Positions 14,583-42,834 of a DNA stretch of 64,000 bases are shown here, piece by piece. Origin of the DNA: Planctomycetota bacterium. Its GTDB lineage: Bacteria > Planctomycetota > GCA-002687715 > DRQF01. A program made the translations under genes and the position numbers. The stretch is from positions 33,955 through 97,954 of the forward strand of contig JAZGFI010000103.1 of NCBI GenBank assembly GCA_036479435.1, written 5' to 3'. How positions within the stretch are numbered: the first letter of the stretch is position 1; the number at the start of each line of letters is the position of its first letter. Under the pieces are notes generated by a model that did no database searches, was not told the DNA's origin, and saw only the letters and a list, made by a program, of their open reading frames with translations.

Positions 14583-14977
14583 TCGTCGCAGCGAAGGCGA
14601 TCCGCGATGAAATTGCGGATGCTGTTCTGAGCTTCTTCGTCTTTCCAGCCAATCCACCAAAACTCGACGCCTATCTCGTAGCCGCCTTTTTCTTGGGCGT
14701 CGCACCAGGAGACTTTGCCCATTGAAATGACCTCCATCGGGAAGCCCGGAAGCTGCAATTCCAATGCCAGCATTTGGCCTTCTGCGACGGCCGCTGGAGC
14801 TTCAAAACTGATACCACCGCCGGAGATGTTGTTGAGGGCCGCGGCATGCTTGGTCTTGAGATCGTCAAATCGCCCGTCGGCGTCCTCGACGGGCCGGAAG
14901 GTCATTTCACAGTTGGCGCTCACTCGCGGAAACCCGCGGTTTTCCATGAGGGCGGGTTTTTGCTTGTCGTTCTTCAT
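14579..14977 (-). CDS. PilZ-domain protein (putative c-di-GMP receptor)
   Basis: RGFPRV (RxxxR) plus NNISGGGISF (D/NxSxxG) PilZ signature motifs. 132 aa. End overlaps the GT1 stop by 4 nt. Confidence 0.7.
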   Translation of the reverse strand: MKNDKQKPALMENRGFPRVSANCEMTFRPVEDADGRFDDLKTKHAAALNNISGGGISFEAPAAVAEGQMLALELQLPGFPMEVISMGKVSWCDAQEKGGYEIGVEFWWIGWKDEEAQNSIRNFIADRLRCDD

Positions 14978-22623: not shown

Positions 22624-23693
22624 GGTGCCTCCCTCAGTTTCTTCAAGGCCAAGCTGATCTGCTCGGCGGTGCTTCGGTAAAGATCAACGTCGCCGCCAAA
22701 GGGATCGATGATGTCGGCCCTAGGGTCAAGGGGGCGGATGCGGTCGGCGAAATCCGGGAATTCATGCGCGAGGATTTCTGCGTGGTGTGCGGTCATCGTC
22801 AAGATGCGATCCATGCGCCGGAGAAGGTCACCGCTGATCGGTCGCGAGCGGTGTCCCCTCAAAGACAGACCGCGCTCTTCCGCCACGATCTGTGCGGCCT
22901 CAGACGCGGGTGTTCCCGCCCAAGCTGAAATGCCCGCCGAAAAGATTCGAATGGCGGGCGCTTCGTCGCCCTCAGTGCCGCCTTCCTGCTCGATCTGCTG
23001 CCTCAAAATGGCCTCAGCCATCGGGCTGCGGCAGGTGTTTCCGGTACAAACCAAGAGGATGCGCTCGGCCAGTTCTTCGGCGACCGTTGTGGCCTCGATG
23101 GCACCTTCTCGCAACACCTCGAAACTGCCATTTTCGAACACGCGGACTACGGTGGAGGGAACGCCTCCGAGCGGTCGGTCGTACTCGACAATAAGATTGA
23201 CGCGGTCGCCGAAAGCCTCGTTGATTGCCTGTGCCGTCGTGAAGTCGGGGCGACCGCTCACGTTGGCACTGGTACCGACGATGGAAAAAGGGGCGCGGCG
23301 AGCGAGCGCCGGCGTGAAAGCGTCAGAGGGGCAACGGAGACCAACGGTCCCTCCGCCGCGGTTGTCGACGACGAGCGTTATGGCACCCGGCCATAGGGCT
23401 CGCGCAAGCCGTTCGGCCGCAGGGGCTAACTCGCCACCAGCGGCGGCGCGGGCCTGGACCAGGTTGCACACGTAGCGGGCCAAGGGCTTGCGCTCGCTGC
23501 GTTGCTTCAGGGCGTAGAGAGCTTTTGTCGCTTCGGGATCGTCGCCGCGGATTCCCAATCCATAGACCGTTTCGGTGGGGAAGGCCAAAATCCCGCCGTC
23601 TTGAAGGCACTCGATGGCCCGTGCCAGAATCGGCTCCAAATTGGCCGCATCAAATTTCAGAATCTCGGTCATGATTTTTGAGGTTATCAGCAT
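22620..23693 (-). CDS. tsaC: fusion protein: YrdC/TsaC-type threonylcarbamoyl-AMP synthase domain plus low-molecular-weight protein (Tyr/Arg) phosphatase domain
   Basis: N-terminal half carries PTETVYGLG and TSANVSGRP (YrdC/Sua5 fold). C-terminal half carries ILLVCTGNTCRSPMAEAI (CX5R P-loop) and a DP loop (IIDPFGG), as in LMW-PTP/YwlE. The stop overlaps the rpiB start (ATGA). Confidence 0.75.
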   Translation of the reverse strand: MLITSKIMTEILKFDAANLEPILARAIECLQDGGILAFPTETVYGLGIRGDDPEATKALYALKQRSERKPLARYVCNLVQARAAAGGELAPAAERLARALWPGAITLVVDNRGGGTVGLRCPSDAFTPALARRAPFSIVGTSANVSGRPDFTTAQAINEAFGDRVNLIVEYDRPLGGVPSTVVRVFENGSFEVLREGAIEATTVAEELAERILLVCTGNTCRSPMAEAILRQQIEQEGGTEGDEAPAIRIFSAGISAWAGTPASEAAQIVAEERGLSLRGHRSRPISGDLLRRMDRILTMTAHHAEILAHEFPDFADRIRPLDPRADIIDPFGGDVDLYRSTAEQISLALKKLREAP

Positions 23694-23794
23694 CCGAGGA
23701 CCGGTGCGGACTTTTGACCAAATCCACGGAGCGTGTTAACAGGCGGGTAGGATCATGGCCCCGCAAGGGCCACCGCCTCTTGAGAGCGCAGGGA

Positions 23795-24541
23795 ATGTCC
23801 GAGCACCAATCCAAAGAACGATTGCAACAACTTAGCGCACTTGTGGGCGGGCTCGCCCACGAGATCAAAAACCCCTTGTCGACGATTAACATCAACCTTG
23901 AGCTGTTGCGCGAGGACTGGCATCACGACGGCGGGCCGCTGGCTAGTCGTTCGATTCGTAAAATCGACGTCTTACTGCAAGAATCGAGGCGCTTGGAGGG
24001 GATGCTGACAGAATTCATCAGACTAACTTCGACCGCCGAGCTCGACCCGAGCATCGTGGATATCAATGTCCTCTTGGAGGACGTCCTCGATTTTACGGCG
24101 GCCGAATGTCGGAATCGCAATATCCAGATCACCAGCCAGCTGGACCGCTCGCTCCCGCGCGTTGAGTTGGACCCCAACTTGATCCGCCAGGTGGTCTTGA
24201 ATCTCCTCAAAAACTCCTTCGAGGCCATGGAAGAGCGTGGCGGCACGATCACCGTCAACACCAGGCGCAAGGCGGCGGGGAGTGACTCGGAACTTAGGGT
24301 TGTGATCGAGGTTATTGACAACGGCTCCGGCATCACCCCGGAATCCCAAAAGCGGGTCTTTCAGGCTTACTTTTCTACCAAAGCCGAGGGAACTGGATTG
24401 GGTCTTCCCTCGGTACAAAAGATCGTCGAACGGCACGGCGGTCGCATTAGCTGTGAGAGCGCTCCCGGTTTGGGAACTCGCTTCGTGGTCGAGCTCCCAG
24501 CCAGGCAACCGTCAGCACCAGCACCTGACGAGGGACCCTGA
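23795..24541 (+). CDS. soluble sensor histidine kinase (HisKA + HATPase_c)
   Basis: H-box LVGGLAHEIKNPLSTI. N, G1 (DNGSGI) and G2 (GTGLGL) boxes. No TM segment. Start at ATG 23795; the longer frame would run into the divergent gene. Confidence 0.8.
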   Translation: MSEHQSKERLQQLSALVGGLAHEIKNPLSTININLELLREDWHHDGGPLASRSIRKIDVLLQESRRLEGMLTEFIRLTSTAELDPSIVDINVLLEDVLDFTAAECRNRNIQITSQLDRSLPRVELDPNLIRQVVLNLLKNSFEAMEERGGTITVNTRRKAAGSDSELRVVIEVIDNGSGITPESQKRVFQAYFSTKAEGTGLGLPSVQKIVERHGGRISCESAPGLGTRFVVELPARQPSAPAPDEGP

Positions 24542-24546
24542 ACGTC

Positions 24547-25932
24547 ATGGAACGTGATATCAAGGTTCTGGTCATCGATGACGAGGCTAACCACGCCCAA
24601 GCCACCGCCGAGATTCTTGAACGCATGGGCTACGACGTCGCGGTGGCGACCTCGGGCAAAAACGGTCTCAAAACGATCGCGGCGGATGTCTTTGATCTCA
24701 TCGTCACTGATGTCGTCATGGGCGAAATTGGCGGCTTGGACATCCTCCAGGCGGCTAAGGCCAAGAACGCTGCAACCGAGGTCATCTTGGTGTCGGGTCA
24801 AGGTAGCGTTGGCATGGCGCTAGAGTCCATTCAGCTCGGTGCGGCGAACTACCTCACAAAGCCGCTGAAAGTCGACGAGGTCCGCACTGAAGTTAGAGAA
24901 GTCGTTCGCCGGATTAGGGACCGGCGGCGAGGGAATGTGCCGAAGGCCATTCCCGTCGCGGTCGAACGTATTCCGTCCGAAGAGTACGGCGATTTTCACG
25001 AGTTCATCGGCCGTTCCGCCGCTCAGCTGCAAGTCTTCGAGATGATCCGCAAGGTCGCTCCCACGTCGGCGACGGTCTTGGTTACAGGACCGAACGGGTC
25101 CGGCAAGGAGCTCGTCGCCCGGGCGATTCACCGCCTGAGTCCACGCCACGCCAATCCCTTCGTCGCCTTGAATTGCGGCGCCATGGCCGAAAACATTCTC
25201 GAGAGCGAACTGTTCGGTCACGTTCGGGGCGCTTTCACCGGGGCCACCGCGAACCGTGAAGGTCGTTTTCAGTACGCCGACAAGGGCACCCTGTTTCTCG
25301 ATGAGATTGGCGACACCTCGCTTTCGTTCCAAGTCAAACTATTACGGGTCATCCAAGAGCGAGAAGTGACGCCGGTTGGTTCCAATGCCACGCGTCAGGT
25401 CGATGTCCGAATTATCACGGCAACTAACCGTGACTTGGCGGAAGAAGTCCGCCGGGGCAACTTTCGCGAGGATCTCTACTACCGCTTGAAAGTCGTGCAT
25501 ATCCAAACCCCTCCGCTCAAACATCGCCGAGAAGATATCCCCGCCTTAGTTCAGCATTTCATCACAGAAGCCAACGCGAGCTTCGGCAAGCAGGTAAGCG
25601 GAATCCAAAAAGTCGCGCTCCAACAACTCATCAACTACGACTGGCCCGGCAACGTCAGACAACTGAAAAACACCGTCGAAACAATGGTGGTATTGGGCTC
25701 AACGACGGAGCTAGGAACGGAAGACATCCCCTCGGACGTCGTGGGGACCGCGACCCCCGGTCAGGCGCTCGCACCGCTGGAGATCTTTGAGCAGTTGACG
25801 CTTTCGGGCATCGAAGAGTTCATGATCCGTCACCACCTAAAAAAGTTCGACGGGAGCCGCGCCAAGGTCGCCGAAGCCCTGGGGATCTCAGAGCGGACCC
25901 TCTACCGCAAGCTCAAAGAGTACGGCGTCTAG
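24547..25932 (+). CDS. sigma-54-dependent response regulator (NtrC family: REC + AAA+ + Fis-type HTH)
   Basis: REC domain with the phospho-acceptor Asp in LIVTDVVM. Walker [15 protein letters not shown] motif, Walker B LFLDEIGD, Arg-finger region. C-terminal HTH ([25 protein letters not shown]). Confidence 0.9.
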
Positions 25933-26162
25933 GCAGGCGCCGCAGGGCGTCAAGGTCAAACTCAACCTGTCAGATTGGCACTGCACACCTAAAGCCTTTC
26001 CCTCCGCTGTCAAAAAGACAGGGTGCCCGCAGCCCCCTCGATTCACCTAAAACACGCCTATCAAGGGAGTTGGGCGCATGCCTTGCGGCGCCACGTTCGG
26101 CCTCATATTTGCGCCCTGGAGCCCGTAAACACTCAACCGGAATAACCAAAAAGGAGTCCGGC

Positions 26163-28088
26163 ATGTCCAAGATCATCGGAATCGATCTCGGTACCACCAA
26201 CTCAGTCGTCGCCGTCGTAGAGGCGGGCAAACCCACGGTCATCACCAATGCCGTCGGCAATCGGACGACACCCTCAGTGGTCGCTATCACCGAGTCAGGC
26301 GAAGAACTCGTCGGCATGAGCGCCAAACGGCAAGCCGTCACGAATCCTCTCAACACCATTTTCTCGATTAAGCGTTTCATGGGACGCCGCCACTCGGAAG
26401 TCCTCGACGAAGAAAAGCGCTTACCCTACAAGCTGGTGGGTGCCAGCGATGAAATCGTCAAGGTGGAAGTGCAAGGCCGCACCTACGCCGCACCCGAGAT
26501 CAGCGCCAAGATTCTCAAGTCGCTGAAAGAAACCGCGGAAAACTACCTCGGCGAGCCGGTCGAGAAGGCCGTGATTACCGTGCCCGCTTACTTCAACGAC
26601 AGCCAACGCCAGGCAACGAAAGACGCGGGTCGGATTGCTGGCCTCGAAGTGGTGCGCATCATCAACGAGCCCACCGCGGCGGCGCTCGCCTACGGCATCG
26701 AGAAAGACTTCACCGGCAAGATCGCCGTGTACGACCTCGGTGGCGGCACATTCGACATCTCAATCTTGGACGTTGACGCCGGTGACGGCGACGAATTGGG
26801 CAAGACCTTCGAAGTGCTCAGCACCAACGGCGACACTCAGTTGGGCGGCGATGACTTCGATGAAGCGGTTCTCGATTGGATCGCCCAAGAATTCTTGCGC
26901 TCGAATGCCGTCGACCTTCGCGACGACAAAATGGCGCTCCAACGCTTGAAGGAAGCGGCAGAGAAAGCCAAGTGCGAGTTGTCGACAACGGTTCAAACCG
27001 AAATCAACCTTCCCTTCATTACGGCGAACGCAAGCGGCCCGCTTCACTTGCAGATGACCTTGACGCGTTCGCGCTTCGAACAGATCGTGGCACCGCTCAT
27101 CGAACGCACCAAGCTGCCCTGCCTGAACGCTTTGAAGGACGCAGGTCTCCAGCCCTCGGATGTTCACAACATCATCTTGGTTGGTGGTTCGACCCGAATT
27201 CCCGCCGTGGAGGCGATGGTCAAAGAACTCTTCGGCAAGGACGTCGATGGCGGGGTGAACCCCGACGAAGTCGTTGCGCTTGGAGCCGCCCTACAAGGTG
27301 GGATCTTGGCTGGCGAGCGCGACGATGTTGTGCTCATGGATGTGACGCCCTTGTCCTTGGGCATCGAGACCCTCGGGGGCGTGATGACCAAAGTCATTGA
27401 GCGTAACACGACCATTCCCTCGCAGAAGACGATGCCGTTCTCGACCGCAGACGACAACCAAACCACGGTCAGTATTCACGTCTTGCAGGGCGAACGCGAG
27501 ATGGCTGGCGACAACCGCACCTTGGGTCGCTTTGATCTGACCGGAATCCCATCGGCGCCACGCGGCCGACCGAAAATTGAAGTCAGTTTCGATATCGATG
27601 CGAACGGCATCTTGAAGGTCGCGGCGAAAGATTCCGAGACCGGCAAGCAGCAGGACATCAAGATCACTTCGTCCTCGGGTATCTCCGAAGAGGAAATCGA
27701 GCGCATGAAGCGCGACGCCGAAGAGCACGCCGCCGAAGACAAAACCAAGCGCGAACTCATCGAGTTGCGCAACCGTGCCGACATGGTGGTTCACGACACC
27801 GAAAAGAACCTCAAAGAGCACGGTGACAAGATTTCGGAAGAGGACCGCGCCAAAGTCGAAGCGGCGCGCGAAAAACTCAAAACCGACCTCGAAGGCGGCG
27901 ACAAGGAGAGCATCGAGAAATCTGTCGAAGCTCTTATGGAAGCGTCGCAGTCTTTAGCCAAGGCGCTTTACGAAGCCGAAAACCCCCAAGCGGGCGGTCC
28001 CGAGGCGAGCGGCCCGGGTCAACCCGAAAGTGAGCAAAAAGACGACGACGACAACGTGATCGACGCCGATTTCACCGTCAAGAACTGA
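26163..28088 (+). CDS. dnaK: molecular chaperone DnaK (Hsp70)
   Basis: [26 protein letters not shown] and [11 protein letters not shown] Hsp70 signatures. 641 aa with a charged C-terminal tail. ATG at 26163. Confidence 0.95.
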
Positions 28089-28113
28089 GCTTTCGCATCT
28101 CATTCACTTGAGA

Positions 28114-28152
28114 GGCCCCAGTCGTCAGACGCGATTGGGGCCTTTTCTTTTG
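28114..28152 (+). terminator. candidate intrinsic terminator downstream of dnaK
   Basis: ggcccca (28114-28120) / tggggcc (28136-28142) stem with a 15-nt loop, followed by ttttctttt. Confidence 0.45.
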
Positions 28153-28268
28153 GCGCCGACCCCGCGAGAATCTGATCGCTTTCGCACAACAGGGCCATCG
28201 CATTTTCTATGCTGCGTCTGCAAATGCTCTCTGGACGCTCGGATTGGCAATCGGCCGGCGCGCTGGCA

Positions 28269-28284
28269 TTGGCTCGACGCTTGC
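28269..28284 (+). promoter_or_regulatory. candidate sigma-54 (-24/-12) promoter upstream of the Gld-like ABC operon
   Basis: TGGCTC-gacgc-TTGCT matches TGGCAC-N5-TTGCW, with GG (28270-28271) and GC (28282-28283) at the canonical spacing. Lies ~175 nt upstream of the ATPase start. Two sigma-54 activators are encoded in the window. Confidence 0.3.
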
Positions 28285-28459
28285 TTGTCTTCCTTGCCTT
28301 CACTGGTCTGGCGCGGCAATCGTGTCAAAGCGCTCACTGTGTCGACTCGGCTCGGGGACCTTGTTATGTCTGGTCTGCTGGGGCAGAACTGAGGGGCGCC
28401 GACGCCACCACTATCGCCTTTGACAATTACGGAGATGGCAGTTTGGATTCTCTTCTTCG

Positions 28460-29404
28460 ATGATCGAAGTTCACAACTTATTCAAACGTTTCGGGGCCTT
28501 TGAGGCTTTGAATTTCGTCAGCTTTGAAGTGGAAAAAGGAGAGTCGGTCGGTCTTTTGGGCGTCAACGGCGCGGGCAAGACCACGACGATGCGGATCTTG
28601 TCCTGTTTTTTGCCGCCAAGCTCTGGCACCGTAAAGGTGGGCGGGCATGACGTCGTTTTTGGCTCCGGCTCCGTCCGCAAGATCATCGGTTACCTCCCCG
28701 AAAACGTCCCACTTTACGGTGCGATGCGAGTCGATGAGTTTTTGCGTTATCGCGCAAAACTCAAGGGAATACGCGGACGCGAGGTCAAAGAGAGCGTCGA
28801 TCGAGTTCTCGGCATGGTTCACCTTGATGGCCGCCGGCGCAGCCTGATTCAGACCCTGTCGAAGGGTTTGCGCCAACGTGCTGGGCTCGCTGACGCCTTG
28901 GTGCACAATCCGGATCTGCTCATCCTCGATGAGCCGACTTCCGGTCTCGATCCCACCCAAAGGATTGAGGTGAGAGAAATGGTGAAGTCTTTGAAAGAGG
29001 ACCACACGATTCTGATCTCGAGCCACATTCTTCCTGAAATCGAAGCTTCCTGTGATCGCGTCGTGGTCATTAACGACGGCACCGTGGTCGCCGAGAAAAA
29101 GATCGACGAGTTGCGACGCTTCGGCGATTCGGACCGTTTCCAAATATTGGTGCGCGGTGACAAAGAGACGATCTTGAAAGTGCTCGAGGAGCAAATTGAC
29201 CTCAGGGTTGAGGACAGCGAAGAGCGCGCCACATCGGAGTTCCTTTTCTCCCTTTCGACCCCTGATCGCGAAAATGGCCGGGCGGACGTGAACCGGCGGC
29301 TAGTACGGGCGGACTTTGCCGTGCTCGGACTCATGAGCCGTGACCTGAGCCTCGAAGAGGCCTTCGTTCGTCTGATCAAAGCGGGGGAGGGTGCTTCAAA
29401 GTGA
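28460..29404 (+). CDS. ABC transporter ATP-binding protein (GldA-like, ABC-2 subfamily)
   Basis: Walker A GVNGAGKTT, signature SKGLRQRAGLADAL, Walker B LLILDEPTSGLD, H-loop SSHIL. C-terminal extra domain. Confidence 0.8.
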   Translation: MIEVHNLFKRFGAFEALNFVSFEVEKGESVGLLGVNGAGKTTTMRILSCFLPPSSGTVKVGGHDVVFGSGSVRKIIGYLPENVPLYGAMRVDEFLRYRAKLKGIRGREVKESVDRVLGMVHLDGRRRSLIQTLSKGLRQRAGLADALVHNPDLLILDEPTSGLDPTQRIEVREMVKSLKEDHTILISSHILPEIEASCDRVVVINDGTVVAEKKIDELRRFGDSDRFQILVRGDKETILKVLEEQIDLRVEDSEERATSEFLFSLSTPDRENGRADVNRRLVRADFAVLGLMSRDLSLEEAFVRLIKAGEGASK

Positions 29405-30132
29405 GACGCTTCTTCGTTCTGTTTGGTCGCGAACTCAAGGCGACTTTCGATTCTTTCGGGTTCTTTTTGCTCCTAGCCATCGTGATGGGCATCACCGGCT
29501 TCACTTTCCAAAACCTCTTGCAGGGAACCGGGGGTGAAATGGACTTCGCTCTGCGAGGCCTGCAGTCCTGGTTGTTTTGGCTAACCATCGTCTTGACGCC
29601 GCTGTTGACGATGCGCCTGTTTGCGGAAGAAAAGCGCTCAGGGTCTTTTGAACTGTTGATGACCGCACCGGTGTCAGACGCCCAGGTCGTCTTGGCGAAG
29701 TATTTCTCGAGCGCATTGATCTTCGCCACTTTCATGCTGCCCTTGTGGGTGCTGCATGCCTTGCTTGCTCTTTTTTTTGACGCCGAACCGGATTGGGGCC
29801 AACTCTGCGCGACGAGTATCGGCCTGTTGGGGCTCGCTATTGTCTTCCTTGCGGTGGGGCTGTTCGCATCAGCGGTGAGCAGTCAGCAGCTATGGGCCGG
29901 CATCTTGGCCCTCATCGGCAACATGGTCTTGATGGCCTTGGGGACCCTGCAGAGTTTCTTTGACGCGGGTAGTACCTTCAGTCGATTCTTCCGGTACATC
30001 AATCTCAGCGAACACCTTGGCACCGCGCTCGGTGGGGTGATTGACTTTCGCCAAACGTTGGTACAAGTCTCGCTAACTTGCCTCATCTTGTTTTGGACCA
30101 TTCGCTCGGTGGAGGTCCGCAAATGGCGTTAA
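29401..30132 (+). CDS. ABC-2 type permease (GldF-like)
   Basis: Six TM segments. GTG start overlaps the ATPase stop (GTGA). Confidence 0.6.
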   Translation: MRRFFVLFGRELKATFDSFGFFLLLAIVMGITGFTFQNLLQGTGGEMDFALRGLQSWLFWLTIVLTPLLTMRLFAEEKRSGSFELLMTAPVSDAQVVLAKYFSSALIFATFMLPLWVLHALLALFFDAEPDWGQLCATSIGLLGLAIVFLAVGLFASAVSSQQLWAGILALIGNMVLMALGTLQSFFDAGSTFSRFFRYINLSEHLGTALGGVIDFRQTLVQVSLTCLILFWTIRSVEVRKWR

Positions 30133-31754
30133 GAAAGGCCGACCCGGAAGCGCCCAGCTTCGACCGTCGCGTGCAGTCAAAGATTGCGGCCAACGTGGTC
30201 TTGGTTTCGATTCTTGCCGTCTTAGTGGTGGTGTTCGCGAACTACGGATTCATGTTGTGGGGCAAAAAGCACGATTTGCGCTACGACCTCACCGCGTCTG
30301 GCCGCCGTGAGCTGGATTCCAGCACCAAACAACTGGCGCGTCAGATCAACCACCCGGTCGACCTTTATCTCGTTACCGGCATCGACCAGGTCTTGCGTGA
30401 AGCCAGTCGTGCGAATCTCCAGGCCAATACGCCCGACGGCGGCATCTTGCGCGACATCTACCTGCCGCTTTTGCAACGATTCACCGCCGACATTGGTGCT
30501 TTGGCGCAGGAACTCAGTGCGGTCAACGACAAGATTCGTTTTCACAACTGCGAGGTGCAACGAGATCCTGAACTCGCGAATAAGTGGCGTCGCAAATTGG
30601 GCCTTGGTCCAGATCAGTTGCTGAACCACCTCGTCATTCGAAACTCAGCAAACGGCGAGCAGAAGAGCTTCAGCCTCTACCGAATCTTTGATGTCGATCT
30701 CGGCGGACCCGATCCCACGGTGGGGCACCGGCGCCCGGTCATTCGCGGCGATTTCATCGAAACGTCGCTGCGATTTGGTCTGAAGCGAGTCCTCGATGCG
30801 ACCGAACGCAAGGTCTACTTCAGTGTCGGCCACGGGGAAGAAGAGCTGTTGATGGCGCGGCAGTTCATGAGCGGCGATGGCTTTGTGTTTTCGCCTCTCG
30901 ACTTTGATCAAATTGAGAATGTCCCGACCGACGCTGACTTGGTGATCGTCGCGTCTCCTTCGCGCTCCTTTGCCGAGGCTGGCCGCAAGATTTTGGAAGA
31001 CTACTTGGAAACTGGCGGCCGCATTTTGCTGTTGCAAGGAAGGAACAACCGCGAGGACTTTCGGGGCCTTTTAGAGAAGTTCGGCTTGGCCTTATCCAGT
31101 GTCCAAGTGGGGCACCCAATTTGGAATGTCCGCGGTACGAGTCCCTACAAGTTGTCCGGCTTTGGATTTTTAGAGCCCGCTCGAACGCAACCGGCTCACC
31201 TCGTCACGGCTTCTTCGGTCGTGGAGCGCATTCCGATCTACCTTGGGTTCTCACGGGCTTACGTCGAGAACAAAGACTACGACGAACAGAAATTTCAGCG
31301 CACGCGGCTGCTATCAAGCGGCATCGATGCTGAACTCATGCCATTTGTATTCGATGGCAAAAACTGGCGACAAGCTCCTGAGAATGGCGTCACGACGGGT
31401 AATCGCGGCCTCGGCTACGCATTGACACTAGGCACAAGTGTCGCCGCCGCCAAGGAGAGTGAAGCCACGGCGGAAAAAGGGCGCGCCGTGCTTATGGCGA
31501 GCGACGAGTGGCTGAGCGGCAAACAGCTCATGGGCGGGTACAGCCTCGCCAACGCCGACGTCTTGACCAACGCAGTCTACTGGCTAACCGACAAAGAGAA
31601 GCTCATCACCGGAACGCCGCGGCGTTTTCGCGGCCGCTTTGTGACCATGGAACCGGAAGACCACACCACCTTTCGCATTCTTGGGGCGGGTCTGGTCCCG
31701 GGTTTCATCTTGCTCTTGGGCATCTTGGTCTTCTACATGAGACGGCGAACATGA
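30123..31754 (+). CDS. GldG-like ABC-type auxiliary protein (ABC-type uncharacterized transport system family)
   Basis: N-terminal TM anchor after ATG 30123, a large periplasmic domain, and a C-terminal TM segment (GLVPGFILLLGILVFYM). This architecture and its position after the ABC-2 permease are typical of GldG. Confidence 0.6.
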   Translation: MALRKADPEAPSFDRRVQSKIAANVVLVSILAVLVVVFANYGFMLWGKKHDLRYDLTASGRRELDSSTKQLARQINHPVDLYLVTGIDQVLREASRANLQANTPDGGILRDIYLPLLQRFTADIGALAQELSAVNDKIRFHNCEVQRDPELANKWRRKLGLGPDQLLNHLVIRNSANGEQKSFSLYRIFDVDLGGPDPTVGHRRPVIRGDFIETSLRFGLKRVLDATERKVYFSVGHGEEELLMARQFMSGDGFVFSPLDFDQIENVPTDADLVIVASPSRSFAEAGRKILEDYLETGGRILLLQGRNNREDFRGLLEKFGLALSSVQVGHPIWNVRGTSPYKLSGFGFLEPARTQPAHLVTASSVVERIPIYLGFSRAYVENKDYDEQKFQRTRLLSSGIDAELMPFVFDGKNWRQAPENGVTTGNRGLGYALTLGTSVAAAKESEATAEKGRAVLMASDEWLSGKQLMGGYSLANADVLTNAVYWLTDKEKLITGTPRRFRGRFVTMEPEDHTTFRILGAGLVPGFILLLGILVFYMRRRT

Positions 31755-33517
31755 AACAAAGCGGCCTCGTCGTAATGTTCTTGCTGCTAATGGCGGCATT
31801 TGCAGCGGTTTTCTACTTGCGCGGCCAAGAGGATGAAGCGCCCCCGGTCGACCCTTTGCGCAACGTCGATTTTAGCACCTTGAAGGCCGTGGTTTGTCGC
31901 GACGGCAAAGGCAGCGAATGGCGTCTGGAAATAGAGGCCGACAAGTACTTTCTGCGTTCGTCGCAGATCGCGGATGGCCTACGCGTCAGCGCCGATCAAG
32001 AACTCGCGCGACGTGTGATTTCATTGCTTAAAGAATCACGCCCGGTTCGCGACCTCGACCTCGAGTCCATCGACCCCAAAGCCTGGGGTTTGCAGCCTCC
32101 CTCACTGATCCTCGCCCTCGAGGACGGCAGCAAAGAGCACCTCATTCACGTTAGCCGCCCCGACTTGGACAACGGGGTCTTGTACTACCGGCCCGGTGAG
32201 AAAGACCTCTTTCGTGTCAACCGCCGAATTTTCGACGAGTTCCGCCGCGCGCCCTATGCCTTTCGAAATCCGCGGCTCTCATCTTTGTCTTACGCCGAGG
32301 TCCAAGGGCTTCAGATCAAGCGCCCCCATGAGTCCGTGTCGATGAGGAGATTGGGAGGGCGGTGGTTTCTCAGTCAAAAGGACCGGTTTGATCGCGCCAA
32401 TCCACTGAAGGTCGACCAGTTGGTCGCCTTTTTCGCCAATCAAAAAGGTGGCCCGCTGTCCAAAGAACGCCAGGCTCTCGACTGGCAAGAGCTAGCCGAA
32501 GTCTCGCTCAACGACGGCCTCGGCAAGATCGCACGCTACTTCGTCTACAAAACGTCCAGCAATGCCCGGATACTGGCGGCGCGGCGCGCCGACGAAACGG
32601 AATTGCGGCAGTTGCCCCTGACGGTCTTGAATCACATCACCATCACCGCAGAGCAGCTTCGCGACCCGTCGCTGATTGGCCTCGCCGAGAGCGAACTGGC
32701 CTCCATCATCATCGAAGGCCCCGGCCGTAAGCTCCCTTTGTTGCTGCGCCAAAGAGAGGGGAAGTATTGGTATGTGGGGCAAGGCCGCGTCGTGCCCCGC
32801 GTCGATCGCTCGCGATTCGAAGCCTTTCGCGACCGCGTCCTCAATCTTCGGATCGTCGAGCGCCTCGAAACGACTCCGGACTTCGATGCCTTCCTCACCA
32901 TTCGACTGAAATATGCCGGTGACCGCGATCGCCCCGACTTAGTCGTCAAACTGAGCCGCCCTCGAGACGATGGTCTGGTGTTGGCCCAACGTTCCGACGA
33001 GAAAAACGGGGTCTTAGTCGCTAAGAGCGAACTCGAGGCTCTCCAAACTCCCTACTGGAAACTCATGCAGCTCCATGTGTTTTCCGCCAGCGACGCCGCC
33101 ATCAACCATTTCACGATCGACGATCAAAAGGGTCGAGCCTTCAAACTCGAGCGCAGCGATGACGGCGTCGCCTGGCAGCGCAGCCAAGGCGAACCCCTTG
33201 GCGCAAGCCTCATGACGCCAGTCCTAAGCCGCCTCGCCTACCTCGGAGTTGCTGATTTCCTCGGCGTACTCCCCGCCGACCAAGTCAAAAAACTCTTCGC
33301 CAAGCCAAGCTGGAAAGTCAGCTGGCACTCACCCGAACAAAAAAACGAAAAGGGTATCCCCTACCGCCCTGAAACCAAAATCTGGGAAATAGGCGGCCTC
33401 GTCGACGACATCCACCACGCCTGCCGCATCAACCTTTTCCCCGGCCTCATCTTCAGCATCAAGGGCGAAGACCTCCTCTTTCTCAACGTCCTCTTCAACG
33501 CTCTCCGCGGCGCCTAA
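31751..33517 (+). CDS. DUF4340-type protein that habitually follows GldG-like genes
   Basis: ATG 31751 overlaps the upstream stop (ATGA). N-terminal TM anchor (LVVMFLLLMAAFAAVFYL), then a ~560-aa soluble region with no catalytic motifs. The gene order ATPase-permease-GldG-like-this gene matches the widespread 4-gene arrangement. Confidence 0.5.
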   Translation: MKQSGLVVMFLLLMAAFAAVFYLRGQEDEAPPVDPLRNVDFSTLKAVVCRDGKGSEWRLEIEADKYFLRSSQIADGLRVSADQELARRVISLLKESRPVRDLDLESIDPKAWGLQPPSLILALEDGSKEHLIHVSRPDLDNGVLYYRPGEKDLFRVNRRIFDEFRRAPYAFRNPRLSSLSYAEVQGLQIKRPHESVSMRRLGGRWFLSQKDRFDRANPLKVDQLVAFFANQKGGPLSKERQALDWQELAEVSLNDGLGKIARYFVYKTSSNARILAARRADETELRQLPLTVLNHITITAEQLRDPSLIGLAESELASIIIEGPGRKLPLLLRQREGKYWYVGQGRVVPRVDRSRFEAFRDRVLNLRIVERLETTPDFDAFLTIRLKYAGDRDRPDLVVKLSRPRDDGLVLAQRSDEKNGVLVAKSELEALQTPYWKLMQLHVFSASDAAINHFTIDDQKGRAFKLERSDDGVAWQRSQGEPLGASLMTPVLSRLAYLGVADFLGVLPADQVKKLFAKPSWKVSWHSPEQKNEKGIPYRPETKIWEIGGLVDDIHHACRINLFPGLIFSIKGEDLLFLNVLFNALRGA

Positions 33518-33614
33518 CTGGTGGTGCAGTGTCGCATCAGGGCCACCAAAAAGGGTGACCCTCATCTGACACTGTTACGGCGAGATGCGAAGGCCTCTAC
33601 TTTGGTGTCTTGAA

Positions 33615-35075
33615 CTATAGTTCGGCTTCGAATTCGTCGTCTTGGCGGAGCTCGCTAGCCATGGCGGTGCGGTTGGCGCCGCGCTTTTTGGCGAGGTGGA
33701 GGGCTTCGTTGGCCCGACGGAAGAGGTCGTCGGAGTCGTGGGCGTCGACGGGGAAGGTGGCCGCGCCTACGGAGGCGGTGATTTGGCTGGCGATTTCGGG
33801 GACGGAGGAGCGGAAGTCGTAGGAGGCTAAGGTCGAACGGACGCGGTCGACGTAACTTTTTCGCTCACCGACAGCCGCGACGGAGGCGCCAGTTTCGGGG
33901 AGGAGGACGGCGAACTCGTCACCACCCCAGCGGGTCACGACGTCGACCTCGCGGAAGCAGCGGCGGATGAGGCGCGCCACTTCTCTGAGAATGGTGTCGC
34001 CAGTGACGTAGCCGTTGACGTCGTTGAAGGCTTTGAAGTTGTCGATGTCGATGAGAGCGAGAGTTAGCTGTCGGCCGTAACGGCGGGCGCGCGCGAGCTC
34101 TTGACGCAACTGCCGGTCGAAGTGACGGCGATTGTAGAGCTGAGTGAGCGGGTCGATGACCGTGAGCGCGTGGAGTTCTTCGATGTTTTTGGCGTTGCGG
34201 AGGGCGACGGCAAAGTGCCCCGCGAGGAGTCTTAGCGTTTCGGCATCATCGGGTGAAAAAGCGGCGCCATCGGCGCGGTCGGCGACATTAAAAACTCCGA
34301 GGCTTAGCTGGCGATCGCGGAGCGGGACCACGAGGCATGAATTGGTGGCGTAGCCGCGTGACGGTCGATCGGGGAACTCTCGAGCGATGTCTTTGACCAG
34401 GAGTGCTTGGCCGCTTTCGGCGACGGAGCCGGCAATGGGGGCTCCGAGTTGGACCACGACTTGGGTCGGTATGTCGTCGGGGAATCCGATTCTTCTGACC
34501 ATCTCCAGGGGCTTGCCAGCTCCCGACTGCAACATGAGGGAACCACGACGAGCGCGGGAGATCTCCATCACGACTTCAAGTCCTCGGGTGAGGAGCTTGT
34601 CGCGGTCGTGCTCAAGTTCAGAGAATTCGAGCATCGCTTGGATGACTTTGCTGAGGCGGCTTTCGCGGGGTGGCAACCGCTCTTCGTCACTGACGAGGGA
34701 GCTGGTCAGATCTGTGACGGACTCGCCATCAGGGTTGCCGAGAGCGTGCAACAACGCTCCATAACCAAAGGGTTCGGCCAGCCTTTCGTCGACACTCTCG
34801 ATGTCGTCGAGGATGGCTTCTTCGGATTCGCTGATGATGAGGCGGTAGGGCGCGGCGACGTCTCGAAGCTCTCGAAGATAGTCGGCCGAATTTGCGGGAA
34901 GCAGAGCGGCTCGGGCTAAGAACGCGCCCGGTGAGTACCGCGCTGAGAGCATCGCGGCTTCTAGGTAGCTATGGGTGGGAAGGACTTCCCAACCATCGCT
35001 GCGCAGCATCGCGACAAAGTGCTCGAGGTTCGGCTCGTCGTCGGTCAGGATGACCACCGATCTGCGTGCACTCAT
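33615..35075 (-). CDS. diguanylate cyclase with N-terminal receiver-like and GAF domains (REC-GAF-GGDEF)
   Basis: C-terminal GGDEF domain with an intact GGDEF motif (RWGGDEFAVLL) and an RYGRQLTLALIDIDNFKAFND segment. A central GAF-like region. An N-terminal CheY-like fold. Confidence 0.8.
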   Translation of the reverse strand: MSARRSVVILTDDEPNLEHFVAMLRSDGWEVLPTHSYLEAAMLSARYSPGAFLARAALLPANSADYLRELRDVAAPYRLIISESEEAILDDIESVDERLAEPFGYGALLHALGNPDGESVTDLTSSLVSDEERLPPRESRLSKVIQAMLEFSELEHDRDKLLTRGLEVVMEISRARRGSLMLQSGAGKPLEMVRRIGFPDDIPTQVVVQLGAPIAGSVAESGQALLVKDIAREFPDRPSRGYATNSCLVVPLRDRQLSLGVFNVADRADGAAFSPDDAETLRLLAGHFAVALRNAKNIEELHALTVIDPLTQLYNRRHFDRQLRQELARARRYGRQLTLALIDIDNFKAFNDVNGYVTGDTILREVARLIRRCFREVDVVTRWGGDEFAVLLPETGASVAAVGERKSYVDRVRSTLASYDFRSSVPEIASQITASVGAATFPVDAHDSDDLFRRANEALHLAKKRGANRTAMASELRQDDEFEAEL

Positions 35076-35113: not shown

Positions 35114-36256
35114 TCAGCTCTCAAAGTCGGCGTCAGCAGCAACGTCGGCTTCGAGGGAACCGTGGCCTACGCACTCAAATTTGAGTTCGATCCGAAGGCG
35201 CCGTCCCGGCTCCGCAGACACATCGCAGCCAATGCCACAGCGTTCGAGATTTCTTACTGCGATAGGGTAGCCAAGGCCACGTTCTACGGGATTATACAGC
35301 AAGGACAAGCCAGGTGCCGCAAGTGCTTCCAACTGACTTGAAGTAAGGCGATGGCCCTCTTCAACAAATTCTAGGATAACTTGTCCTTCATGGGCGCGCG
35401 TGGACCAAGAAAGCGAGCGAGAGCGACTGGCGGGCTCCAAGGCGGCTCGCAACAGGTAAGTGAGGGCTGACCGCAGAAGACGCGTGTCGGCCCGCACTTC
35501 GGGAAGGTCTTTGGCGAGGTTCAGGCTCAAAGGTATTGCGGATGTGCCCTGCGCTCCGATGATCTCGCGCAAAAGAGCATTGAGACGCACCGGGCCGATA
35601 TAGACGCGCCGATCTAGACGGTGACTTCGCAATAGCCGCACGATGCGGTCGATCTCGCGCAACTCCCGAAGGGTGTGTGAAATATGGCGATGGGCGGGAT
35701 CGTCGGTGGCAATATCTTGTAAGAGCAATTGCAGCCATCCTTCGGCCGCGGCCACGCGCGGTGAAAAAGCCGCGCCCAAAGCGCCCATGATGGCGGACTG
35801 GCGATCAGGATCTAAGGGCAAGGCCAATGGCGCCGCGATGGGCGGTTCACACGCCGTAGCGGCAGCCGAAACGCTTAGCTGTCGGCGAGGCCGTTTTGCC
35901 AATTGTGCAAGTTGCGCGCTGAGTTCATGGAATTGATAGGGCTCTGGCCAGGTCAATCCGACGGCCCAATTTTTGGCCCTGTTCTCGTCCTCTTTAGTAG
36001 GGCACAAAACGCAGAGGCGATCGAGGTCTGGGGCATCCGCGGGAGGAGAGGGGGCGCGCAAAAAACTGGCATGAATCACGATGCTGGGACCGATGTCAGA
36101 ATCTGAGTCTATTCCCGCAGCTCGGCACGATTCGTAGATAGAATCGAGCGAAGTGAGGTTTTTGACCTCTAATCCTTCACGAACCAAGAAGGCTACAAGA
36201 GCCCTGGCATCCGGTCCATCGGGATGAAGGAGATAGCATTGGCGCGTCATAGTCAT
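35114..36256 (-). CDS. receiver-domain protein with C-terminal histidine-kinase-like (HisKA/HATPase) region
   Basis: N-terminal REC-like fold. H-box-like HISHTLRELREIDRIV. C-terminal G-box-like GLGYPIAVRNLERCG. Sits immediately upstream of, and in the same orientation as, the GGDEF gene. Confidence 0.45.
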   Translation of the reverse strand: MTMTRQCYLLHPDGPDARALVAFLVREGLEVKNLTSLDSIYESCRAAGIDSDSDIGPSIVIHASFLRAPSPPADAPDLDRLCVLCPTKEDENRAKNWAVGLTWPEPYQFHELSAQLAQLAKRPRRQLSVSAAATACEPPIAAPLALPLDPDRQSAIMGALGAAFSPRVAAAEGWLQLLLQDIATDDPAHRHISHTLRELREIDRIVRLLRSHRLDRRVYIGPVRLNALLREIIGAQGTSAIPLSLNLAKDLPEVRADTRLLRSALTYLLRAALEPASRSRSLSWSTRAHEGQVILEFVEEGHRLTSSQLEALAAPGLSLLYNPVERGLGYPIAVRNLERCGIGCDVSAEPGRRLRIELKFECVGHGSLEADVAADADFES

Positions 36257-36512
36257 TTTTGGGGAACCGGATTTTTGGCCCCAACTAGGTCAGTTATCGG
36301 ATTCGTCGAAAAGGGTCTTTCAACGCCGACTATAGCCCTTATGGGGCCCACGGGTGCTTTTCAGCGAGTGTTTCGCAGCAAGCGCCTGGGGTCGGCGCCG
36401 CTTGCTTCGGCCCAAGATTCGTCAGATTCTGAGTTTACGTTAGGTGGGAAATCTCGATAAGACCTGTCTGGGCGCAACCGTTACCCGGCCCGTCGAGTGG
36501 ATAAGAGGAGCC

Positions 36513-37451
36513 ATGGACGTCGATCTTTCAGTGATCATCCCGGTCTTCAACGAAGAAGACAACATCGAACCGCTAGAAGCGGAGCTCCAGGCGGTGCTTG
36601 AAACACTGCCCGGACGCTCCGAAGTGATCTTTGTAGATGATGGGTCTAGCGACCGCTCCTTCGAGCGTCTTCGCGAGGTCGTTTCGCGTCGAGATTGGGC
36701 GCGCGTCGTGAAGATGAAGCGCAATTTTGGGCAGACCCAAGCCATGGCGGCCGGTTTCGACTACGCCCGAGGTAGCGTCCTCATTTGTATGGATGCCGAC
36801 CTGCAAAACGACCCCCGAGACATCCCGCGCTTGCTCGAACGCATGGATCAAGGCTTCGACATTGTGAGTGGTTGGCGCAAGGACCGAAAAGACAAGTTCC
36901 TTACGCGGCGCTTCCCCTCGATCTGCGCCAACTGGTTGATTGGGCGCATCGTCGGGGTTCGCATCCACGACTACGGCTGTTCGCTGAAGGCCTACGATGC
37001 CCGCGTGGTGAAATCCTTGAATCTCTACAGCGACATGCACCGTTTTCTCCCCGCGCTCGCATCGAAATGTGGTGCGCGCGTCACCGAGATCACCGTCAAT
37101 CACCGGGCCCGACTGCACGGTGAGAGCAAATACGGATTGTCGCGCGTTTTCAAAGTCGTGATCGATATCGCCGTCATCAAGCTCATTGTTGATTTCGCCG
37201 CGCGGCCGATCCACGCCTTTGGTCCGATCGCGGCGATCTACATGTTGGCGGTCCTGTTTACCCTCCCGTTTTTCGTGATCAATCTCGCCGTGGGATATCG
37301 CGTCAATGTTGTGATCCCAACCATCATGGTTTTGTTCGCGATGGGTGCGCTTTACTTTTTCGGTATCGGAATGCTGGCGGACCTGGTCGTCCGCGTCGGC
37401 CGCGATGACACCGCGCGCTATGCCCGCGCCACCGCGATGGAGTTGAGCTGA
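36513..37451 (+). CDS. glycosyltransferase family 2 (polyprenyl-phosphate sugar transferase-like, DPM1/ArnC type)
   Basis: LSVIIPVFNEEDNIE, DDGSSD and DADLQND (DxD) motifs. Two C-terminal TM helices. ATG 36513 is preceded by AAGAGGAG. Confidence 0.75.
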   Translation: MDVDLSVIIPVFNEEDNIEPLEAELQAVLETLPGRSEVIFVDDGSSDRSFERLREVVSRRDWARVVKMKRNFGQTQAMAAGFDYARGSVLICMDADLQNDPRDIPRLLERMDQGFDIVSGWRKDRKDKFLTRRFPSICANWLIGRIVGVRIHDYGCSLKAYDARVVKSLNLYSDMHRFLPALASKCGARVTEITVNHRARLHGESKYGLSRVFKVVIDIAVIKLIVDFAARPIHAFGPIAAIYMLAVLFTLPFFVINLAVGYRVNVVIPTIMVLFAMGALYFFGIGMLADLVVRVGRDDTARYARATAMELS

Positions 37452-37452
37452 T

Positions 37453-38499
37453 ATGAGTCGAGTTCCCGGTCTTCAGGCCGCTGAGGCAGCTGAATCCACT
37501 GATGTCATCGAGCGCTATGAGTTCGATGTCACTTTGGTCGTGGTGGCATCCGACGTGGATGTTCATCTCGACAGTTTCGTCGAGATGATCGACGCCTTTC
37601 GCCGCGTCTTCCACGAATCAAATCTGAAAGCCGAGTACATCGTCGTCGACGATGGCAACACGGGTTCGTTTTACGACCTCCTCGTTCGCTTGAATCGCGA
37701 GATCCCCAACTTCAAGGTCATCCGTTTTCGGCGCACCTTCGGCGATTCGGTGGCCCTGCAAATAGCGACGGAGCGGGCCCGTGGAGAATTCGTCATCACG
37801 AACACCTGGTACTTGCAAGTCAAGGCCGAAAGCGCACTCGACGCCATTCGCCAACTTCGCAATGGGGCGGACGTCGTCGCGGGAGTTCGCTGCCCGCGTG
37901 TCGATTCCTTCGTAGCTCGAATTCAGAGCTGGGGATTCAATGTTCTGACGCGGTTTTTGACCAACGTCGGGTTTGAAGACTTGAATTGCTCTTTCCGAGC
38001 TTTCAAGCGTCAGGTTCTCAGCGAGATCCACTTTCACGGCGACCTTTTCCGATTTGTACCCGTCTTGGCCGTCGGGCAAGGATTTCGAGTCGAAGAAATG
38101 GAAGTCACCCACGTCGCAGAGAAGGGTCCAGGGACCTTTTTGAACTTCAGCCTGTATGTTCGAAGATTTCTTGATGTCTTCAGCCTTTTCTTTCTTTTGA
38201 AATTCACGAAGAAACCACTACGTTTCTTCGGACTGACGGGATTCGCATTGGCATTCGCCGGCTTTATCGTTGCTTGCTTCTTGTTGTGGGACAAGTTTTT
38301 TGCCGCCGAAGAGATCGGAATGGTCGACAGGCCTCAAACCGTGCTAGCGGTTTTGTTGATGGTCTTGGGTCCCATCTTGCTTTCGATTGGTCTTATTGGG
38401 GAAATCATCATCTATACGCAGGGCAAGGGTCTCTCCGATTATCACATCGACACGATCCTAGGGGCAAAAGATGAGGACAAAGCACGCCGTGACGATTGA
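37453..38499 (+). CDS. glycosyltransferase family 2-like protein with C-terminal TM helices (second copy)
   Basis: GT-A fold region (VVDDGNTGS) followed by two TM helices. Paralogous in architecture to the preceding GT2 gene. Confidence 0.55.
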   Translation: MSRVPGLQAAEAAESTDVIERYEFDVTLVVVASDVDVHLDSFVEMIDAFRRVFHESNLKAEYIVVDDGNTGSFYDLLVRLNREIPNFKVIRFRRTFGDSVALQIATERARGEFVITNTWYLQVKAESALDAIRQLRNGADVVAGVRCPRVDSFVARIQSWGFNVLTRFLTNVGFEDLNCSFRAFKRQVLSEIHFHGDLFRFVPVLAVGQGFRVEEMEVTHVAEKGPGTFLNFSLYVRRFLDVFSLFFLLKFTKKPLRFFGLTGFALAFAGFIVACFLLWDKFFAAEEIGMVDRPQTVLAVLLMVLGPILLSIGLIGEIIIYTQGKGLSDYHIDTILGAKDEDKARRDD

Positions 38500-39571
38500 G
38501 ACTGAACCCCGAATTCCCCTAGAGGAAGCACCTCCGGTGGAAGTAAGGCCCTATGCCGCTAGCGACCGCGAGGCCTGGAGCCAGTATCTAGGCAAACACC
38601 CTCAAGCGACTTTTTTTCACACGCTCGATTGGGATGAGATCATCCGGCGGACTTTCTCCCACGAGAGCCGTTTTTTGATCGCGCATCGCGACGGTCAGAT
38701 CAGCGGGATCTTGCCGCTCACTAGGGTGAGTTCGGCGTTTTTTGGCACTTCACTCATCTCCGTTCCCTTCGGCGTCTACGGCGGGTTGTTGGTCGACGAT
38801 CAAAAGAGCGCCGACGCGCTCTTGAAGGCGGCCGGCGAAGTCGTGGCGACTGAAAAAGCCAAGTACGCGGAGCTGAGGCATCTGCATCGCCCCGACATCG
38901 ACCTGCCTCGCAACGAACTCTACGCGACTTTCATCGAAGACGTTCCGGGCGACGCGGAGGGCTGTTTGGCGCGTTTACCGCGAAAGGCGCGGGCGGAGGT
39001 GCGCAAGTGCTTGAAGGATGAGCTGCTGACGGCGGAAGAGGAGGGAATTAGCCTCGAAGACTTCCATCGCCTCTTTTCATTGAACAAACGCAAACTTGGA
39101 TCGCCTTTGTTTCCGTCCAGCTTGTTTTGGCACATCCGGGACGTCTTGGGCGCCGAGAACGCGCCGATTCTCACCGTCAAACGCGACGGAAGAGTTCTCG
39201 CAACGGTGATGTCCTTTGTCTTTCAGGACACCATCATGCCCTACTACTCCGGCTCGGCGCCGGATGCTGATCGCTTTCGTGGCAACAACTTCATGTATTT
39301 CAAACTCATGGAGTGGGCCTCAGAACGCGGCCTCAAAAAGTTCGATTTTGGACGCAGCCGCGTTGAGACGGGATCATTCTCTTTCAAAAAGCACCAGGGT
39401 TTCGAGCCCATCCCGCTGTCTTATGACTATCTGCTTGCAGAGGGAGAGGAGATCCCCTCCCTGAATCCCAGCAACCCCAAGTTTCGAATGGCAAAGCGCG
39501 TTTTTCGTCGTATGCCACTGTGGATGGCACAAAAAGTCGGCAGTTGGCTGGTGAAACGCGCACCCTTCTAA
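38471..39571 (+). CDS. FemAB-family / GNAT-fold acyltransferase-like protein (Acetyltransf_6 type)
   Basis: FMYFKLMEWASERGLKKFDFGRS is the characteristic C-terminal block of FemAB-like proteins found in polysaccharide loci. 366 aa. Confidence 0.55.
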   Translation: MRTKHAVTIETEPRIPLEEAPPVEVRPYAASDREAWSQYLGKHPQATFFHTLDWDEIIRRTFSHESRFLIAHRDGQISGILPLTRVSSAFFGTSLISVPFGVYGGLLVDDQKSADALLKAAGEVVATEKAKYAELRHLHRPDIDLPRNELYATFIEDVPGDAEGCLARLPRKARAEVRKCLKDELLTAEEEGISLEDFHRLFSLNKRKLGSPLFPSSLFWHIRDVLGAENAPILTVKRDGRVLATVMSFVFQDTIMPYYSGSAPDADRFRGNNFMYFKLMEWASERGLKKFDFGRSRVETGSFSFKKHQGFEPIPLSYDYLLAEGEEIPSLNPSNPKFRMAKRVFRRMPLWMAQKVGSWLVKRAPF

Positions 39572-39683
39572 GGGGCAGGGTAAGCCCATCGGAGTCAGGA
39601 CTGCTTCGACAAGGGCTCGACTCTTAGACACCTCGACTGTTAGACTCACAAACATAGTCCTAAAACAGCCGGAGTCCTAGGAT

Positions 39684-42661: not shown

Positions 42662-42834
42662 GAAGATGAAGCTGGCTATAGGTGGCCAGTTCGAAGAAAA
42701 CAAAGCTGGGCTCGGTCAATGAGACAGCTCGAAAAATGAAACCAGGAGGCGCGGCAGGCCTCCAACTCGGTCAGCCATCGAAAAGACGGCGCGGGTCAGC
42801 AAAACCCTGATGAATCGGGGTCGCCCTTCGTCCG

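Follow-up and report, generated by a model that had tools for sequence, protein, structure and literature searches.

What transcribes a bacterial transporter operon whose relatives are spread over many phyla, and what might its products do? Both questions are raised by a 64,000-nucleotide stretch of DNA from a Planctomycetota bacterium (contig JAZGFI010000103.1), here called the window. Downstream of dnaK it carries four consecutive genes on the forward strand, encoding an ABC-2 ATPase (28460–29404, 314 aa), a permease with about six transmembrane (TM) segments (29401–30132, 243 aa), a GldG-like protein (30123–31754, 543 aa), and a DUF4340 protein (31751–33517, 588 aa). The initial annotation had read the genes in this way; open reading frames (ORFs), Pfam matches, and hydropathy agree. 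It had also raised the possibility of a sigma-54 promoter, and the balance of the evidence tilts towards such a promoter, predicted at 28270–28285, as the start of the operon.

Sigma-54 promoters have the consensus TGGCACG-N4-TTGCW, with GG at −24 and GC at −12. A scan that scored 12 positions of this consensus, with GG and GC compulsory, identified the −24/−12-type motif TGGCTC-GACGC-TTGCT (TGGCTCGACGCTTGCT) at 28270–28285 on the forward strand. It agrees with the consensus at 11 of 12 positions, and its GG and GC are 10 nt apart, the exact spacing. The motif is intergenic and on the operon strand, within the 371 nt that separate dnaK from the ATPase gene, where about 0.002 sites of this quality (at least 11/12) are expected from background. 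It ends 175 nt before the ATPase ATG. (The sequence is thus present as first described, one nucleotide downstream of the coordinates 28269–28284 given then.) From the usual distance between the −12 element and the start site, transcription is predicted to begin near 28296, leaving a leader of about 164 nt.

Upstream of the motif lies a terminator-like hairpin that follows dnaK (28111–28153, forward strand): an inverted repeat with 12-nt arms, 92% complementary (AGGCCCCAGTCG and CGATTGGGGCCT), and then a T-rich run. Hairpins stand directly 3′ of dnaK in the orthologous loci too. The hairpin most likely separates dnaK from the ABC operon, which would make the operon a transcription unit of its own.

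Comparison with close relatives carries the argument further. Nine orthologous loci were available: the window, L001, L003 (the same as L008), L006 (L013), L007 (L012), L009, L010, L011, and L014. Three others of the same clade, L004, L005, and L092, lack the upstream region. ATPase and permease sequences are 50–80% identical among the orthologous loci, and all four proteins taken together about 37–66% identical. L001 has a motif scoring 11/12 (TGGCGCGAGACTTGCT at 5280, 76 nt before the ATPase ATG), the sole match at that level in 15.6 kb. L014 has one scoring 10/12 (CGGCACGAGACCTGCA at 1887, 130 nt before the ATG), and its sister L006 has a degenerate version in the equivalent place (CGGCACGGGACTTGTA), in which the −12 GC is replaced by GT. 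Only about 0.011 sites of at least 11/12 are expected over all comparator upstream regions together, so the L001 match is unlikely to be due to chance. The promoter proposal gains support from L001, L014, and the degenerate version in L006, and loses it elsewhere in the clade and beyond. The promoter appears to be lineage-restricted (the window, L001, L014, and perhaps L006) and does not characterize the transporter family as a whole.

Several observations weigh against a sigma-54 promoter at 28270. The motif is missing upstream of the operon in five of the nine orthologous loci: L009 and L011 have no candidate upstream of the ATPase gene, and L003, L007, and L010 share no valid GG-N10-GC site, having in common a TTGCAA-N16-TATCTT block that resembles a housekeeping promoter. 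The dnaK stop codon and the motif are only about 80 nt apart in L014, and most of this interval is hairpin. Among 117 distant operon loci, three matches of at least 10/12 were found against about 1.4 expected, which is not a significant enrichment; one of the three is L014 itself. Within the window, sites of at least 11/12 number two against 0.6 expected, again not significant at window level, and the 28270 site ties with a site at 58041 for the top score. No upstream activating sequence (UAS) common to the window and L001 was found, only short two-copy repeats, and the 64-kb window contains neither an RpoN box nor an rpoN gene. Finally, the source is a metagenome-assembled genome (MAG), and the promoter is a prediction from its sequence. 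Taken alone, the 28270 motif is suggestive but not significant.

Compared with classical sigma-54 promoters under NtrC-family control, the 28270 site has the exact GG/GC spacing, the 11/12 match, and sigma-54 activator genes encoded in the same window; it differs in having no detected activator-binding site and in its rather long leader of about 164 nt. An Rfam search of that leader returned no match except a sub-threshold one on the dnaK hairpin, and its predicted fold is not unusual (z = +1.0). The putative leader also holds two 27-nt direct repeats (28292–28318, CCTTGCCTTCACTGGTCTGGCGCGGCA; 28359–28385, CCTTGTTATGTCTGGTCTGCTGGGGCA), 70% identical and 67 nt apart, which may be a matter of chance.

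Alternatively, the 28270 match may be fortuitous or vestigial, with a housekeeping sigma factor transcribing the operon from a promoter nearer the ATG, an arrangement that most orthologues seem to have. This explanation is a serious possibility, although it is not the one that we favor. It would account for the five orthologous loci that lack the motif, for the TTGCAA-N16-TATCTT block about 75–95 nt before the ATG in L003, L007, and L010, for the missing UAS, for the non-significant excess of high-scoring sites in the window, and for the lack of association with sigma-54 in distant operons. Moreover, the window contains a perfect TTGACA at 28420–28425. However, the hexamer 17 nt further on, TTGGAT, matches TATAAT at only three of six positions, and a sigma-70-type consensus scan of 25900–33700 found no site that passes. 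Chance is likewise an unlikely explanation for the independent matches of 10–11/12 that L001 and L014 have in the orthologous position, at an expectation near 0.01 for sites of at least 11/12 over all comparator regions.

In an eight-locus alignment of the 160 nt that end at the ATG, conservation was confined to the L003/L007/L010 subclade, which has a shared block, GCTTGCAAGTT-N12-GCTATCTTTT, at 5226–5262 in L003, ~3500–3540 in L007, and ~6890–6930 in L010. The block lies about 75–95 nt before the ATG, where the window has its sigma-54 motif, which suggests that promoters have been replaced in the course of the clade's history. A candidate sigma-54 site in L003, GGGCTG-AAGGC-TTGCA (8/11), was rejected: its TTGCA belongs to the TTGCAA-N16-TATCTT block, and L007 and L010 are without the GG.

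A perfect core sigma-54 motif, TGGCACATTGCTTGCA, stands 211 nt before the ATPase gene in L135 (3296–3311), a distant ABC-2/GldG operon on a soil metagenome contig. It is isolated among the 117 distant loci.

If the operon starts at a sigma-54 promoter, which activator would serve it? Two enhancer-binding proteins (EBPs) encoded nearby, at 24547 and 39684, had been pointed out as candidates. Both do contain a Sigma54_activat domain; the evidence for each nonetheless leads elsewhere. The first (24547–25932) has the canonical GAFTGA loop, is preceded by a small sensor-less HisKA/HATPase kinase (23678–24541), and is followed by dnaK. Upstream of dnaK the window has the motif GGGCGC-ATGCC-TTGCG at 26072, and every locus that includes this region has a −24/−12 motif 53–106 nt ahead of the ATG (for example, TGGCATCGCAGTTGCA in L003 and TGGCACCGAACTTGCG in L010). 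The regions compared were 25933–26164 in the window, L001 2706–2954, L003 984–1301, L006 4628–4885, L007 1–188, L009 4434–4880, L010 4480–4718, and L011 4625–4847. Some 50–110 nt above the dnaK motif lie two conserved palindromes: one CTGTCAGATTGACAG-like (window 25967–25981), the other CTGCCAAAAAGACAG-like (26007–26021; CTGTCAAAAAGACAG at 26007). Motif and palindromes together are arranged as is classical for promoters activated by an EBP. The EBP at 24547 therefore most likely controls dnaK, and in this lineage dnaK itself appears to depend on sigma-54. No palindrome of the dnaK type was found upstream of the ABC operon, which leaves a link between that EBP and the operon unsupported. The literature searched yielded no report of sigma-54-dependent dnaK in this lineage, and no functional study of sigma-54 with ABC-2 systems or dnaK in planctomycetes.

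The EBP at 39684 has GAFTDA in place of GAFTGA, and scores 412 bits against the PEP-CTERM-box regulator model, below the cut-off of 502.6. It is a response regulator in a cluster (36444–41033), where its gene is preceded by two ArnC-like GT2 genes and a gene for an XrtA/PEP-CTERM system-associated protein of the FemAB family, which with 356 bits exceeds the TIGR03019 cut-off of 260. Its loop and its place in this PEP-CTERM/FemAB glycosyltransferase cluster lend no support to a role at the ABC operon.

The proximity of dnaK allows two further readings. One is that the operon and dnaK form a sigma-54-controlled module for envelope or proteostasis stress, each with its own −24/−12 promoter, within a conserved block that runs from the kinase–EBP pair to a GAF-GGDEF cyclase gene; this must be called doubtful. 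The other, quite improbable, is that transcripts of the operon come for the most part from the dnaK sigma-54 promoter, by read-through, under the same kinase–EBP pair (23678–25932), as one stress-controlled unit. The sigma-54 motif of dnaK and the two palindromes are conserved, and dnaK precedes the ABC operon in all orthologous loci that include the region, although L003 and L007 have inserts. In addition, stress in a cyanobacterium induces a DUF4340 gene together with ClpB and HspA (PMC12789804). Read-through would nevertheless have to pass the hairpin and T-run after dnaK in the window, and the hairpins in the orthologues; in L003 it would also have to cross two unrelated genes, one of them on the opposite strand.

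The conserved synteny is itself open to another explanation. The window shares its gene order with the orthologous loci: CarboxypepD_reg, rpiB and sua5/LMWPc (both on the opposite strand), the small histidine kinase, the sigma-54 EBP response regulator, dnaK, the ABC operon, GAF-GGDEF (opposite strand), two GT2 genes, and a FemAB-like gene. Housekeeping genes of unrelated function (rpiB, sua5) also belong to this block, so that it may reflect the inheritance of gene order and is not proof of functional coupling.

The GAF-GGDEF diguanylate cyclase gene (33615–35075, reverse strand) runs towards the 3′ end of the DUF4340 gene, in convergent orientation. An equivalent converging cyclase gene is present in L001, L003, L004, L006, L007, L009 (GGDEF only), L010, and L011. 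Behind it in the window is a gene for a 380-aa protein without a Pfam match (35114–36256), which has a counterpart in L001.

A start at the sigma-54 motif would give a transcript for four proteins whose genes overlap at every junction, as the initial annotation noted: GTGA at 29401–29404 between ATPase and permease, 10 nt at 30123–30132 between permease and GldG-like protein, and ATGA at 31751–31754 between the latter and the DUF4340 protein. Such overlaps are the usual sign of translational coupling. The GldG-like ORF is counted here from the ATG at 30123 (the longest ORF opens at TTG 30078), and the DUF4340 ORF from the ATG at 31751 (longest, 31508). Public annotation of a Planctomycetota MAG uses the same starts, with proteins that are 100% identical over their full length: P0011 ("ABC transporter ATP-binding protein"), P0001 ("Gldg family protein"), and P0131 ("DUF4340 domain-containing protein").

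The ATPase belongs to the GldA/DrrA/NodI-like ABC-2 class (Pfam ABC_tran, 2.2e-28, 100 bits). Its translation contains every element that marks membership in PF00005, all intact: Walker A (GVNGAGKTT), the ABC signature (LSKGLRQR), Walker B with the catalytic glutamate (LLILDEPT), and the H-loop (SSHIL). A C-terminal extension of about 90 aa follows. The permease is GldF/NosY/CcmB-like, with its six or so TM segments deduced from hydropathy; it matches Pfam ABC2_membrane_3, 4, 5, and 2 together with CcmB (1.8e-08). Most ABC-2 families pass their gathering thresholds (ABC2_membrane_3, 40.3 against 31.6). Alignment within the clade reveals the invariant motif PLLTMRLxAEExxSGSxELLMTAPV.

The GldG-like protein is anchored at both ends. 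Hydropathy places TM segments at residues ~21–39 and, near the C-terminus, ~519–537, with a large periplasmic part between them, and basic residues flank both segments on their cytoplasmic sides. Residues 229–479 match Pfam ABC_transp_aux (PF09822; 37.9 bits, gathering threshold 34.7). The fourth protein has a single N-terminal TM anchor (residues 5–23, by hydropathy) and matches DUF4340 (PF14238) in two stretches (1.1e-15; 58.8 bits, gathering threshold 25). At family level, the GldG and DUF4340 assignments thus withstand the profile search that had been proposed as a check.

Structure prediction adds to this picture. For the GldG-like protein, AF2 gave a model from nine sequences with a mean pLDDT of 74.9. 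In Foldseek comparisons the top matches of this model are the N-terminal domain of IFT52 (5fms/5fmr; target TM-score 0.68–0.75, E-values as low as 2.7e-11), and it also resembles chain G of the human OST complex (6s7t_G; E 1e-8). In this model the periplasmic domain has the GIFT fold, at ~229–479, and columns invariant in the alignment place a GHGE motif at 236–239; the Pfam IFT52_GIFT match is weak. The resemblance to IFT52 and OST chain G is one of fold only, at 13–16% identity, and these are eukaryotic scaffold subunits without an ABC partner.

For the DUF4340 protein, the thirds of a 10-sequence orthologue alignment were compared by hhalign, giving probabilities of 96%, 90%, and 65%, and distant DUF4340 relatives align to it in several registers. 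By these sequence comparisons the protein consists of three related modules in tandem. A PDB sequence search with the permease, GldG-like, and DUF4340 proteins returned nothing under E ~0.08, the permease matching 7f02_B (CcmB) at E 0.096.

Do the Gld names imply more than family membership? In Flavobacterium johnsoniae, both gliding and the membrane localization of GldA need GldF and GldG (PMC9127263). That system shares with the window an ABC-2 ATPase, a six-TM permease, and a doubly anchored PF09822 protein with a large periplasmic domain. The comparison extends to three genes only: the window operon adds a translationally coupled fourth, for the DUF4340 protein, its host is a planctomycete, and the window genes scanned include no sign of genes for gliding or type IX secretion (T9SS). 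The best NCBIfam matches of the first three proteins are indeed the GldA, GldF, and GldG models (the equivalogs tested were TIGR03522, TIGR03518, and TIGR03521), but all score far below the equivalog cut-offs: 278 against 402.6 bits for the ATPase (GldA_ABC_ATP), 96.7 against 288.5 for the permease, and 43 against 389.85 for the GldG-like protein. The Gld-like labels of the initial annotation are therefore valid for families, whereas these profile scores leave orthology to the gliding proteins unsupported. That the three proteins are true orthologues of Flavobacterium GldA, GldF, and GldG, serving gliding motility or type IX secretion, is extremely improbable in spite of the best matches and the two-anchor GldG topology common to both (PMC9127263), given the low scores, the Planctomycetota host, the lack of any further gld, spr, or T9SS gene noticed among the genes scanned in this 64 kb of genome, and the presence of the same module in many non-gliding phyla.

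The module is, as first stated, widespread. A permease-alignment scan of GTDB species genomes found at least 588 relatives. The 80 best of these belong to Verrucomicrobiota, Planctomycetota, Chloroflexota, Gemmatimonadota, Gallionella, Methylomirabilota, Abditibacterium, and others. With HMMs made from the orthologue alignments, the order ATPase–permease–GldG–DUF4340 was found in most diderm loci; among metagenome loci, 30 of 80 have the same four-gene order. Clustering of the flanking ORFs of about 77 distant loci revealed no neighbor family that recurs past single lineages, and none across phyla. This indicates that the module is self-contained, and that genomic context gives no clue to its substrate.

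Some Chloroflexota/Dehalococcoidia loci depart from this order: the long DUF4340 gene was not detected in L029, L030, L035, L038, L044, L046, L047, L057, L058, L063, L064, L069, L072, and L076. In these, a short (~186 aa), N-terminally anchored protein is encoded directly after GldG, and may be a single-module counterpart of the DUF4340 protein.

The permease-alignment scan added only two orthologues, L014 and L092, and the closest ATPase relative is P0012, at 81% identity, on a 1.3-kb contig. Orthologues of the DUF4340 protein are 27–32% identical to it; only 10 representatives at E<1e-30 were found among 1.84 billion, and a word-indexed protein search returned nothing beyond the query itself. 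By these searches the window protein belongs to a small divergent clade, which sets it apart from SAR11 OG1814 and Verrucomicrobium spinosum VSP_RS39600, proteins that share its family and its ABC/GldG gene neighborhood. In V. spinosum a DUF4340 protein is essential (PMC12283558), and in SAR11 one is predicted to be a subunit of the neighboring ABC transporter (bioRxiv 10.64898/2025.12.11.693642). The literature searched contained no functional study of DUF4340, GldG-like, or PF09822 proteins.

How might the four products work? The CcmAB and NosDFY systems perform ATP-driven mechanical work on a periplasmic partner. The window operon resembles them in combining an ATPase, a small ABC-2 permease that matches CcmB and ABC-2 families including the NosY type, and a periplasmic partner; such an arrangement suggests that ATP is used to act on a component in the periplasm. 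However, the operon has no NosD-like or CcmC/E-like partner, having the GIFT and DUF4340 proteins instead, and the resemblance, itself weak, gives no information on the substrate.

On the favored reading, the products would form a single inner-membrane ABC-2 complex comprising the cytoplasmic ATPase, the six-TM permease, the doubly anchored GldG-like protein with its periplasmic GIFT domain, and the anchored protein with its three periplasmic DUF4340 repeats. ATP hydrolysis by an ATPase dimer would be coupled through the permease to both periplasmic subunits. An envelope component may be exported or extracted in this way; otherwise the result may be a conformational change handed on to the two periplasmic subunits, or mechanical work on a periplasmic partner. 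Transcription would start near 28296, from the sigma-54-dependent promoter at 28270–28285, and would be driven by some enhancer-binding ATPase. In this scheme the complex and its mechanism of transport are inferred.

The 28270 motif has company elsewhere in the window. The loose pattern TGGC-N7-TTGCW occurs six times against 1.05 expected, a number that none of 100 shuffles reached. Paralogous HEAT-repeat proteins are encoded at 55659–57608 and 58149–60083, each with a strong sigma-54 motif about 95 nt upstream. Both motifs are intergenic (TGGCATCTCCTTTGCT at 55549–55564; TGGCACCCTCTTTGCA at 58041–58056), and downstream of each is a leader segment, ACGCTCGATCCCC, common to both genes. As sequence matches they are at least as good candidates as the 28270 site. 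With these two and the dnaK motif at 26072, the earlier statement that the site upstream of the ABC operon is the only good sigma-54 match in intergenic DNA does not hold.

Two further sequences may be mentioned. A match to TGGC-N7-TTGCW at 14754–14769 on the reverse strand, TGGCATTGGAATTGCA, lies inside or before a 132-aa ORF. At 42713–42727, in the spacer before rpsA (42835), is a near-palindrome, CTGTCTCATTGACCG, two mismatches from a dnaK-type site.

Together, these results describe an ordinary copy of a widespread four-gene ABC-2 operon, the family-level identity of which, as judged from sequence, is already present in public annotation. With an uncultured host and no unusual architecture, the functional question is no more testable here than in cultured examples. 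The gains concern regulation and naming: the promoter claim is corrected, in that the motif is lineage-restricted and not the sole intergenic match; the neighboring EBP is reassigned to dnaK; and the Gld labels are to be read as family labels, with no evidence of gliding. To the known GldG/DUF4340 operons, this copy contributes a divergent clade from the planctomycetes and a candidate for a regulatory input. Should the doubtful proposal of a stress module shared with dnaK prove true, it would provide a first physiological handle on the GldG/DUF4340 transporters, pointing to envelope maintenance under stress and not to motility.

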